A stretch of DNA of 32,353 bases from contig JAZUJQ010000267.1 in NCBI GenBank assembly GCA_045642845.1, positions 1 to 32,353 of the forward strand, given 5' to 3'. The notes beneath the pieces were generated by a model. The model had not been told where the DNA came from. It ran no database searches and saw only the letters and a list, made by a program, of their open reading frames with translations. Below, piece after piece: positions 7,050-8,390 of the stretch; the first letter of the stretch is position 1, and every line of letters starts with the position of its first letter. Source of the stretch: Kiritimatiellia bacterium. GTDB taxonomy: Bacteria; Verrucomicrobiota; Kiritimatiellia; RFP12; UBA3636. A program made the translations under genes and the position numbers.

Positions 7050-8390
7050 CTAATGCGCACGCAGTTCGGACGACGATATGCCGTTCGTCCGCGGCAGACG
7101 CACGACTTGTTTCCCGTGGTCGCGGCACCAGGCCTCGGCGCGTTTGAATCCGGCGTGAATCTGGTCTTCCCCAAGAACTAAAACATCGAAATCGATGCGC
7201 GTTATGGAGTCATCCACATCCGTGTACGGGACGACTTCATCGACATACCGCAGAGCACGGATCATTTTTACGCGGGTGTTCCAGTCGTACACAAGTCTGG
7301 TCTGCGGCTTGTACTTGGTCACCACGGCATCTTCCTGAACGGCGACGACGAGGGCTCCATCCGATCCGGCGATGTCTTTCGCCCGGCGAAAGAGTTCGTG
7401 ATGCCCGTAATGAAGAAGATCGTAAACGCCTACGGTCAGCACCCGTTTGGGACGCTTCATCTTCATTTCGTTCCAGATATCCACGCCGAGTTTGCGCATG
7501 TGTTTCCGATAAGGTTCGTCTGGATCCATCTCGGCTTCGTCATGTCCTGAAAGCCGCTTTTCGACGGGCGGAAGCTGCATGTAGTCTCCGTACTGAACAG
7601 TCAGAACGTCGTCGTATCCGATCGGCACGGGAAAACGGAATCCTTCAAAGTCCATGTCCATGGCCGAGTCGAACGATTCGGCTTTGAAGATATATTTGCG
7701 CCACGGGCTGAAATTGGAAACATTGCACCCCATGCATGCGGTGCGCGCACCGTTGAACTGCGACGCGAGCCGATGGACTTCCCTGTACGCATCTACCGGC
7801 GTGAGCCCGTAATGTTTGCGGAGACTGTCGCGCGCCTTGTCTGTCATGTCGTATCCCGGGATTTTCATGAAAGCCGAACACCAGACGTTCAGATCCAGAA
7901 CTTGATTGTAGAGTTCTTCGGCCTTTTCCGGTATTTGGTTGTCGATCGGCAGGATATCCAGAAAGATTCCGCACGTAAATCCCCAGAAGTGACGGTGCTT
8001 CTCGAAATACGTGGTGTTGGTATTGCGCAATTTCGGATAGGTGAAGGCGTACCCCCTGTCATTGTGCGGCATGGACAGAAAGTACGGCTCCCGGAATTCG
8101 CCGGCGCAACGTATGAATGCCTCGTAATCCTTTCGCGGCATGTAAATGTCTACATCGTCGTCCCAAGGCACGAACCCCTTGTGGCGGACCGCTCCGAGAA
8201 GCGTTCCGTATGTCAGAAAGTAGCGGAGACCGTGCTTTTTGCAGACGGCATCGACCTGCAGAAGCATGTCCAAAAGGATGGCCCAGATTTTTTTGCGCTT
8301 CTCGTCCACGAGAAAGTCGCAGCGAACTTCGGGTTTGAAGAACTCGCGGGGAAGAATTCCCTCGGCGATGATACGGTCGCACTCGGTCAT
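7050..8390 (-). CDS. Fusion protein: N-terminal LicD-family phosphotransferase plus C-terminal TagD-like (HxGH) cytidylyltransferase
   Basis: 446 aa. The LicD core [30 protein letters not shown] lies in aa 1 to about 285 (about 7536-8390). The cytidylyltransferase domain runs from about aa 316 to the end (about 7053-7445), with [20 protein letters not shown] (HxGH) and the C-terminal [11 protein letters not shown] (RTxGIS-type motif of glycerol-3-phosphate cytidylyltransferases). One uninterrupted frame. Confidence 0.8.
   Translation of the reverse strand: [446 protein letters not shown]

Follow-up and report, generated by a model that had tools for sequence, protein, structure and literature searches.

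In Actinobacillus pleuropneumoniae, the LicD-family protein CpsC, a glycerol-3-phosphate (Gro3P) transferase/oligomerase, was shown to use cytidine diphosphate (CDP)-glycerol made by the adjacent Gro3P cytidylyltransferase CpsB (PMC11666461), and Neisseria meningitidis H and Z carry the same gene pair as CshA/CshB and CszA/CszB (PMC3647402). The founding members of the LicD family come from Haemophilus influenzae and Streptococcus pneumoniae, where LicC and LicD work with CDP-choline (PMC2794190). The subject of this analysis is a single open reading frame (ORF) in which a LicD domain is joined to a TagD-like cytidylyltransferase (CT), located in a 32,353-nucleotide stretch of DNA from a Kiritimatiellia bacterium (contig JAZUJQ010000267.1; this whole stretch is referred to as the window). 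The ORF is probably a read-through fusion of neighboring genes that is evolutionarily very recent or possibly the product of an assembly error.

As in the CpsB/CpsC systems, a TagD-like CT adjoins a LicD-family protein in the window. However, the CpsB and CpsC genes are separate, CpsC has an N-terminal tetratricopeptide repeat (TPR) domain that is missing from the window LicD, and CpsC builds a poly(Gro3P) linker on a Kdo glycolipid in a capsule system of the ATP-binding cassette (ABC) transporter type, whereas the window is a Wzx-type locus. The LicC and LicD systems share the reaction type of the window LicD (transfer of a phospho-alcohol from a CDP donor), but their donor enzyme belongs to the NTP_transf_3 family instead of being TagD-like, and the window has neither a choline kinase nor a choline transporter. 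A literature search returned no description of a LicD–cytidylyltransferase fusion; the fusions described in PMC6697681 combine a cytidylyltransferase with Ppm, not LicD.

The fused reading frame and its two domains

The ORF and its parts are as follows (all on the minus strand):

7050 to 8390 (stop codon included): fused LicD + TagD-like CT ORF, 446 aa, defined as an ATG-to-stop ORF and by Pfam matches and an AlphaFold2 (AF2) model
7470 to 8390: LicD half, aa 1-307, defined by the Pfam LicD match, stand-alone LicDs and a fold match to FKRP
7467 to 7469: bridging codon GAA (Glu308), located where orthologous LicDs carry their stop and forming part of the string GAAATGA
7053 to 7466: CT half, aa 309-446, defined by the Pfam CTP_transf_like match, stand-alone relatives, PDB entry 2b7l and a Foldseek match to 1coz
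Motifs of the LicD half: DDDVD, 8148 to 8162; LDILPID, 7941 to 7961; YGDYMQLPP, 7566 to 7592; tail ending ...GVDIWN, 7470 to 7481
Sites of the CT half: retained ATG, 7464 to 7466; second ATG, 7458 to 7460; HYGH, 7401 to 7412; RTxGISTT-type motif, 7059 to 7091

An earlier note, made from the letters of the DNA alone, had proposed a single 446-aa frame holding a LicD and a complete HxGH cytidylyltransferase, and this description stands: the frame runs uninterrupted from ATG to stop, both Pfam domains are full-length and every motif quoted was found. The LicD domain (PF04991) covers aa 50-268 (E-value 1.7e-41; score 143.2 bits, threshold 22.6; profile positions 1-227 of 227), and CTP_transf_like (PF01467) covers aa 318-445 (E-value 2.6e-16; 60.5 bits against a cutoff of 21; profile positions 1-132 of 133). 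The LicD core lies at aa 64-89 and includes WDDDVD (aa 76-81), with LDILPID following at aa 144-150. In Cps7C, the essential residues D247 and D293 represent a DxD-type motif and the second Asp of the nucleotidyltransferase fold (PMC11666461), and the LicD half has the corresponding acidic motifs in WDDDVD and LDILPID, as judged by motif presence and not by residue alignment to Cps7C. The CT half retains both HYGH (aa 327-330) and the RTxGISTT-type motif (aa 434-444).

Structure prediction for the fused ORF from an alignment of 83 sequences gave a mean predicted local distance difference test score (pLDDT) of 94.2, with both domains modeled confidently, a weak block confined to aa 301-310, and a predicted template modeling score (pTM) of 0.75; the protein is thus predicted as two well-folded units whose mutual orientation is undefined in the model. 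By Foldseek, the LicD half has the fold of FKRP, and the top match of the CT half is Bacillus subtilis TagD (1coz; target template modeling (TM) score 0.84, 34% identity), with Staphylococcus aureus TarD (2b7l) also recovered; a phmmer search of PDB sequences with the CT half likewise gave 2b7l (2.8e-16). In genome collections, the LicD half is nearest to proteins from Acutalibacteraceae and Agathobacter metagenome-assembled genomes (42-43% identity). Both domains are complete and apparently catalytically competent, and, from its family, the LicD half would be expected to transfer a phospho-alcohol from a CDP donor onto a sugar of a lipid-linked repeat unit.

The junction is a lost stop codon

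The earlier note had ended the LicD domain at ~285 aa, but homology to stand-alone LicDs reaches ~aa 301-307. The protein reads ...GVDIWN307, then Glu308, then Met309 of an intact CT N-terminus (M309-KMKRPKRVL...), and the corresponding DNA is TGG AAC GAA ATG AAG ATG AAG CGT. The nearest stand-alone LicDs among 5.8 billion proteins (P0003 and P0004; 307 aa, 59-63% identity) terminate as ...GVDIWD* and ...GVDIWR*; comparable C-termini are seen in the second LicD of P0002 (...GVRIWDK*) and in a LicD remnant in locus L005 (...GVDIWND*). Stand-alone relatives of the CT half start as MKRVLTVGV..., MKVVLTVGV... or MKSNNSRTVLTVGV....

Removing one A from GAAATGA yields TGG AAC GAA TGA, that is, a LicD ending in ...DIWNE* whose TGA overlaps the next ATG (an ATGA overlap); a single substitution, TAA to GAA, would also account for the bridging codon. 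With both halves in one frame, programmed frameshifting or read-through need not be invoked. Read codon by codon, the fusion is exactly a lost stop, since one codon stands at the termination site of the orthologues and the sequence is one nucleotide away from an ATGA overlap. Because the join coincides exactly with the natural end of LicD, the LicD passes into the CT with no linker in the encoded sequence. Overlaps of this kind are found elsewhere in the window, with ATGA at the LicD2/GNAT boundary (15027-15030) and the GtrA/GT2 boundary (28734-28737) and TAATG at the DUF1919/GT61 boundary (20340).

The first of these boundaries involves a second LicD protein:

14098 to 15030, plus strand (14068 to 15030 in the homology comparisons): LicD2, a stand-alone paralogue with 41% identity to the LicD half, overlapping the following GNAT gene by the ATGA at 15027-15030

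LicD2 aligns to aa 2-301 of the fusion and terminates two residues further. The earlier note had the paralogue ending where the linker of the fusion begins and took this to favor a genuine domain fusion over a missed stop. Its end does fall ~5 residues or fewer from the junction, but there is no linker for it to mark, and the data point in the opposite direction, the junction being exactly a lost stop.

The fused ORF could have arisen in a few steps. A licD gene and a tagD-like CT gene would have been adjacent and tightly packed in a polysaccharide locus of the Wzx/Wzy type. A single-nucleotide event would then have abolished the stop, the likeliest being an extra A that turned a GA-ATGA overlap into GAA-ATG-A, with TAA to GAA as the alternative. 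The outcome would be a complete LicD (aa 1-307), one Glu, and a complete CT (aa 309-446), and, if the sequence is correct, a bifunctional polypeptide whose domains would fold and act independently. Such a protein would probably be an ordinary gene fusion of very recent origin, and not a new kind of enzyme.

Occurrence of the fusion and of the architecture

At 90% identity, the fusion protein forms a cluster with one member on one contig, so that it stands alone in a set of 5.8 billion sequences; the contig index has no entry for this exact protein. Among the best 120 matches to the whole protein, none but the query has both domains, the others being stand-alone LicDs save for P0002, a double LicD; the best 120 matches to the CT half are all stand-alone proteins (132-175 aa, 63-76% identity). 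Genome and metagenome collections supplied 153 related loci, of which seven matched both halves by tblastn, and the two genes are separate in all seven. In L087, L091, L043 and L048 the genes overlap but use different frames; they lie in one frame with a stop and one codon between them in L095, and occur with the CT upstream of LicD in L039 and L124. Inspection of the ORFs therefore ruled out all seven as fusions, and a phmmer search of all stop-to-stop ORFs in 164 loci recovered no second ORF with both domains. Nor did a further fused ORF turn up among 210 LicD ORFs in 168 loci.

The view that the architecture itself is unique was overturned when 1.84 billion representatives were searched with a 116-aa probe that covers the junction, and one of the hits, P0334, was then used as a query in turn. 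The probe found three fusions: P0334 (425 aa; LicD at 28-255 and CT at 290-416), P0362 (381 aa, from a 25-member cluster; a LicD-like domain minus the DxD motif (WAQGLDLYI) joined to a CT of the window's subfamily), and P0241 (partial). With P0334 as the query, full-length proteins combining PF04991 and PF01467 (405-452 aa, 29-93% identity) were found to make up at least 25 clusters. These conserved fusions come from independent samples as well as from an NCBI assembly; in each case the setting is a polysaccharide locus, and their source names are limited to "LicD family protein" or "lipopolysaccharide cholinephosphotransferase". The conserved architecture is evidently under selection. The earlier note knew of no characterized example of it; the architecture proves to be known from these clusters, while none of them appears to be characterized in the literature.

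Like the window protein, the conserved fusions P0334, P0409, P0412, P0439 and P0469 have an N-terminal LicD and a C-terminal HxGH CT, and the P0334-like families occur in polysaccharide loci of gut and anaerobic bacteria. However, identity between the window protein and these families is no more than 26-34%, as opposed to 59-63% (LicD half) and 68-75% (CT half) to stand-alone proteins in the same comparison. The P0334-like families also have a CT of the GDDWKG-type subfamily where the window CT has GEDQ, all that is left of their LicD tail is a short dedicated connector, where the window protein keeps the full LicD tail and the full CT N-terminus, and they are conserved across samples and clusters where the window protein is a singleton. 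By the orthology of its halves and by the trimmed connector, the window protein falls outside these families. Given the low identity, the different CT subfamily and the untrimmed LicD tail, the window fusion is a very young, independent example of an architecture that is known but so far uncharacterized.

The fused halves probably belong to different gene modules

The neighborhoods of the two halves bear on whether they would work together. Upstream of the fusion, on the minus strand, are three genes:

10242 to 11375: divergent class II aldolase-like protein (Aldolase_II), the first gene of the cassette
9196 to 10221 (start taken at Met 10221): phosphoglycerate dehydrogenase (PGDH)-like 2-hydroxyacid dehydrogenase (2-Hacid_dh)
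8437 to 9180: IspD-type cytidylyltransferase, directly upstream of the fusion with a 46-nt gap, in the same order as in locus L001

Together with the LicD half, these genes form a cassette in the order Aldolase_II-like protein, dehydrogenase, IspD, LicD (7470-11375 in the window, minus strand; 4354-8924 in L001). L001 has all four genes in the same order (672, 705, 440 and 442 bits to the window proteins) and also shares Wzx (945 bits), an ATP-grasp protein (854 bits) and LicD2 (601 bits) with the window, but no TagD-like CT and no p454 homologue (see below) were found there within 17 kb. IspD also precedes LicD in L004, the locus of P0003. The only PDB relative of the Aldolase_II-like protein is a weak one, the uncharacterized 3m4r. 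The cassette probably makes, CDP-activates and transfers a polyol or acid phosphate, with IspD the likely supplier of the CDP donor for the LicD half. In both the window and L001, the order of IspD and LicD mirrors the synthesis of CDP-ribitol followed by transfer by a LicD-fold enzyme, and pneumococcal TarI is paired with LicD-family enzymes, but the window cassette has an Aldolase_II-like protein and a PGDH-like dehydrogenase instead of a TarJ-type reductase. The logic of an IspD-type CT combined with a LicD-fold transferase is also that of ISPD with FKTN/FKRP (PMC4873967).

In L005 (10946-11687, minus strand), an 89-aa LicD tail (GVDIWND*) and an N-terminal fragment of an Aldolase_II-like protein lie directly upstream of a GDDW-type cytidylyltransferase. 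These remnants indicate recombination or decay at a cassette boundary matching the fusion point of the window.

The CT half is found in different company. The earlier note had called it TagD-like, in agreement with its best solved relatives, which are the Gro3P cytidylyltransferases 2b7l and 1coz. With B. subtilis TagD and S. aureus TarD (1coz, 1n1d, 2b7l), it has in common the fold, HxGH and RTxGISTT (34-36% identity, target TM 0.82-0.84), but TagD has GDDW where the CT half has GEDQ. Against the equivalog model TIGR01518, the CT half scored 65.2 bits, below the cutoff of 165.4 and equal to its score for rfaE domain II; it is thus no equivalog of TagD, although it would work in the manner of one. 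The CT half would join an alcohol phosphate to cytidine triphosphate (CTP), and sn-glycerol-3-phosphate, yielding CDP-glycerol, is its likeliest substrate, since its best structural and sequence relatives are Gro3P cytidylyltransferases and its orthologues adjoin TagF-type and GDPD-like proteins. Those orthologues (72-76% identity) are the first genes of their operons, and are followed downstream by a TagF-type Glyphos_transf protein in L008-L010. In L006/L007 and L011, one gene beyond the gene that follows the CT orthologue, a 434-442-aa protein is encoded that is homologous to a protein of the window:

1675 to 3039, minus strand: 454-aa protein (p454), a candidate distant TagF-like phosphotransferase that co-occurs with CT orthologues and weakly matches Glyphos_transf
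L006, 6317 to 7645, and L011, 4459 to 5763: p454 homologues

The window p454 matches its homologues in L006/L007 and L011 with 328 and 268 bits, respectively, and no further homologue was found among the 168 fetched loci. All three members of the family match Glyphos_transf (PF04464) below the cutoff (E-value 0.15 for the window protein, 0.0017 at best), and comparison of the p454 profile with the TagF-type protein of L008 by hhalign (E-value 0.0013, probability 18%) paired GHPxLD with GYPYLD, YAPH with IAPS, KPHP with RPHP, and LITDCDSFLAEYA with LITDWSAIAFEYA. PDB searches with p454 by sequence or profile returned no match. These resemblances are suggestive of a distant TagF relative, which is likely to consume the product of the CT half.

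The CT and p454 are found together (in the window, L006/L007 and L011) and are both absent from L001; the LicD half, by contrast, is accompanied by IspD and not by the CT. Since LicD orthologues sit in an IspD cassette that has no TagD-like gene, and CT orthologues sit with TagF-type or p454-type proteins, it seems probable that the fusion links the last gene of a polyol-phosphate module to the first gene of a CDP-glycerol/TagF-like module, and that the two do not form a cognate pair. In this reading the LicD half, as the last member of Aldolase_II–dehydrogenase–IspD–LicD, would use the CDP-polyol made by IspD, and the CT half, as the first member of the next module, would feed the candidate TagF-like protein p454.

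Alternative explanations

A number of observations weigh against a recent read-through between unrelated modules. TagD-like CT ORFs, many of them fused to GFO_IDH_MocA, lie within 300 nt of 81 of the 210 LicD ORFs tallied in the 168 fetched loci, conserved LicD–CT fusions exist, and, in L091, a CT orthologue with 56% identity directly follows LicD. The TIGR01518 score far below the cutoff, together with GEDQ for GDDW, means that Gro3P is not assured as what the CT half uses. The connection of p454 to TagF is also weak, falling below the Pfam threshold, with a low hhalign probability and a single-sequence AF2 model (pLDDT 35.5) that is unusable. Finally, the junction may contain an error of assembly or consensus.

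The first of these points favor a cognate bifunctional enzyme, in which CDP-glycerol, or some other CDP-alcohol, comes from the CT half and its phospho-alcohol is transferred to the glycan by the LicD half. A functional link between LicD and TagD-like CT genes holds in general, given their frequent adjacency and the characterized CpsB/CpsC pair, in which a LicD-family enzyme uses CDP-glycerol from its neighbor (PMC11666461), a pairing repeated in cshA/cshB and cszA/cszB of N. meningitidis (PMC3647402). Fusion families of LicD with CTP_transf_like are conserved in independent samples, and the window's own CT subfamily directly follows LicD in L091 and is fused to a LicD-like domain in P0362. 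Nevertheless, cognate action is rather doubtful for this protein: its LicD orthologues (59-63% identity) sit with IspD and without a TagD-like gene, its CT orthologues (72-76% identity) sit with TagF-type or p454-type proteins and without LicD, the fusion is a singleton whose junction shows no adaptation as a linker, and the domains have no defined geometry relative to each other in the model. The earlier proposal that donor synthesis and donor use are combined in one polypeptide thus holds for the general association of LicD with CT, and is made doubtful here by the gene orders; its suggestion of channeling finds no support, the junction being the sole low-confidence segment of a model with a pTM of 0.75.

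It is unlikely that the fusion is an artefact, with the organism carrying two genes (overlapping by ATGA or parted by a TAA stop) that a one-base consensus error merged. The fused and unfused states are one nucleotide apart, so that a single base decides between them; the protein is on a single contig only, and its near relatives are all unfused. However, none of the window's 29 genes (96% coding density, 55.6% GC content) looks split or frameshifted, which is not what an assembly rich in indels would show; the other 28 are intact and match their domains over the full length, and the rate of indel and substitution errors therefore appears low. The run of A at the junction is only three bases long, and similar read-throughs between neighbors recur, with LicD::GNAT in L001 and L002 and LicD::LicD in L005.

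A further reading takes the fusion to be real, born from an ATGA-overlapping pair, and retained as useful, with the protein making a CDP-alcohol (CDP-glycerol) and installing the phospho-alcohol on a glycan. This is judged quite improbable; if true, the protein would offer a snapshot of how the conserved LicD–CT fusion families come into being, and could serve as a convenient one-protein tool for decorating glycans with phospho-glycerol. It is very unlikely that the fusion is real with one half crippled (through loss of the CT dimer interface or of the LicD C-terminal function) as a first step of pseudogenization, an idea suggested by its recency, its lack of an adapted linker and the redundant functions in the locus (a second LicD and a second CT), but countered by the intact catalytic motifs, the high confidence with which both domains are modeled, and the tolerance of equally short or shorter connections by the conserved fusion families.

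Other LicD fusions and neighbors

Fusions involving LicD are diverse in the loci and collections surveyed. The window's LicD2 and GNAT genes (14098-15497), which overlap by ATGA, correspond to one 458-aa LicD+Acetyltransf_1 protein in L001 (13157-14533) and L002 (5850-7226). P0002 (L005, 3853-5742; 629 aa) is a double LicD, its first half resembling the window LicD2 and its second the LicD half of the fusion, and further double LicDs of 545-587 aa (e.g., P0242 and P0249) were obtained from the representative search. Other arrangements include LicD + choline kinase (P0491, 617 aa), Fe-ADH + GT2 + two LicD domains (P0308, 1203 aa), and a short chimera of a CT N-terminus and a LicD tail (P0244, 145 aa). 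Fusions of CTP_transf_like to a GFO_IDH_MocA oxidoreductase (435-449 aa) adjoin LicD in L087 (8935-10284), L043 (5012-6355) and L039 (7998-9305), and ~66 CT-then-LicD pairs of this GFO_IDH_MocA-fused type, many from Blautia, were seen among the fetched loci. Their position beside LicD suggests a reductase + cytidylyltransferase route to a CDP-alditol. A DegT-type aminotransferase, an ATP-grasp ligase and LicD also recur together, in the window (11711-15497, plus strand) and in L005, L012, L013, L086 and L087.

Implications

The bearing of the window fusion on biology at large is small. It shows how single-base changes at overlapping stop and start signals in dense polysaccharide loci create multidomain enzymes; related loci hold comparable LicD::GNAT, LicD::LicD and CT::oxidoreductase fusions. 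As the gene order suggests that the fused neighbors come from different modules, it also advises caution in applying "Rosetta-stone" reasoning, in which such a fusion would be read as a donor/user pair. Its by-products may be more useful, namely the at least 25 conserved, uncharacterized LicD–cytidylyltransferase fusion clusters and the uncharacterized Aldolase_II–dehydrogenase–IspD–LicD cassette, with the p454 family, as a possible distant relative of TagF, providing a further lead.

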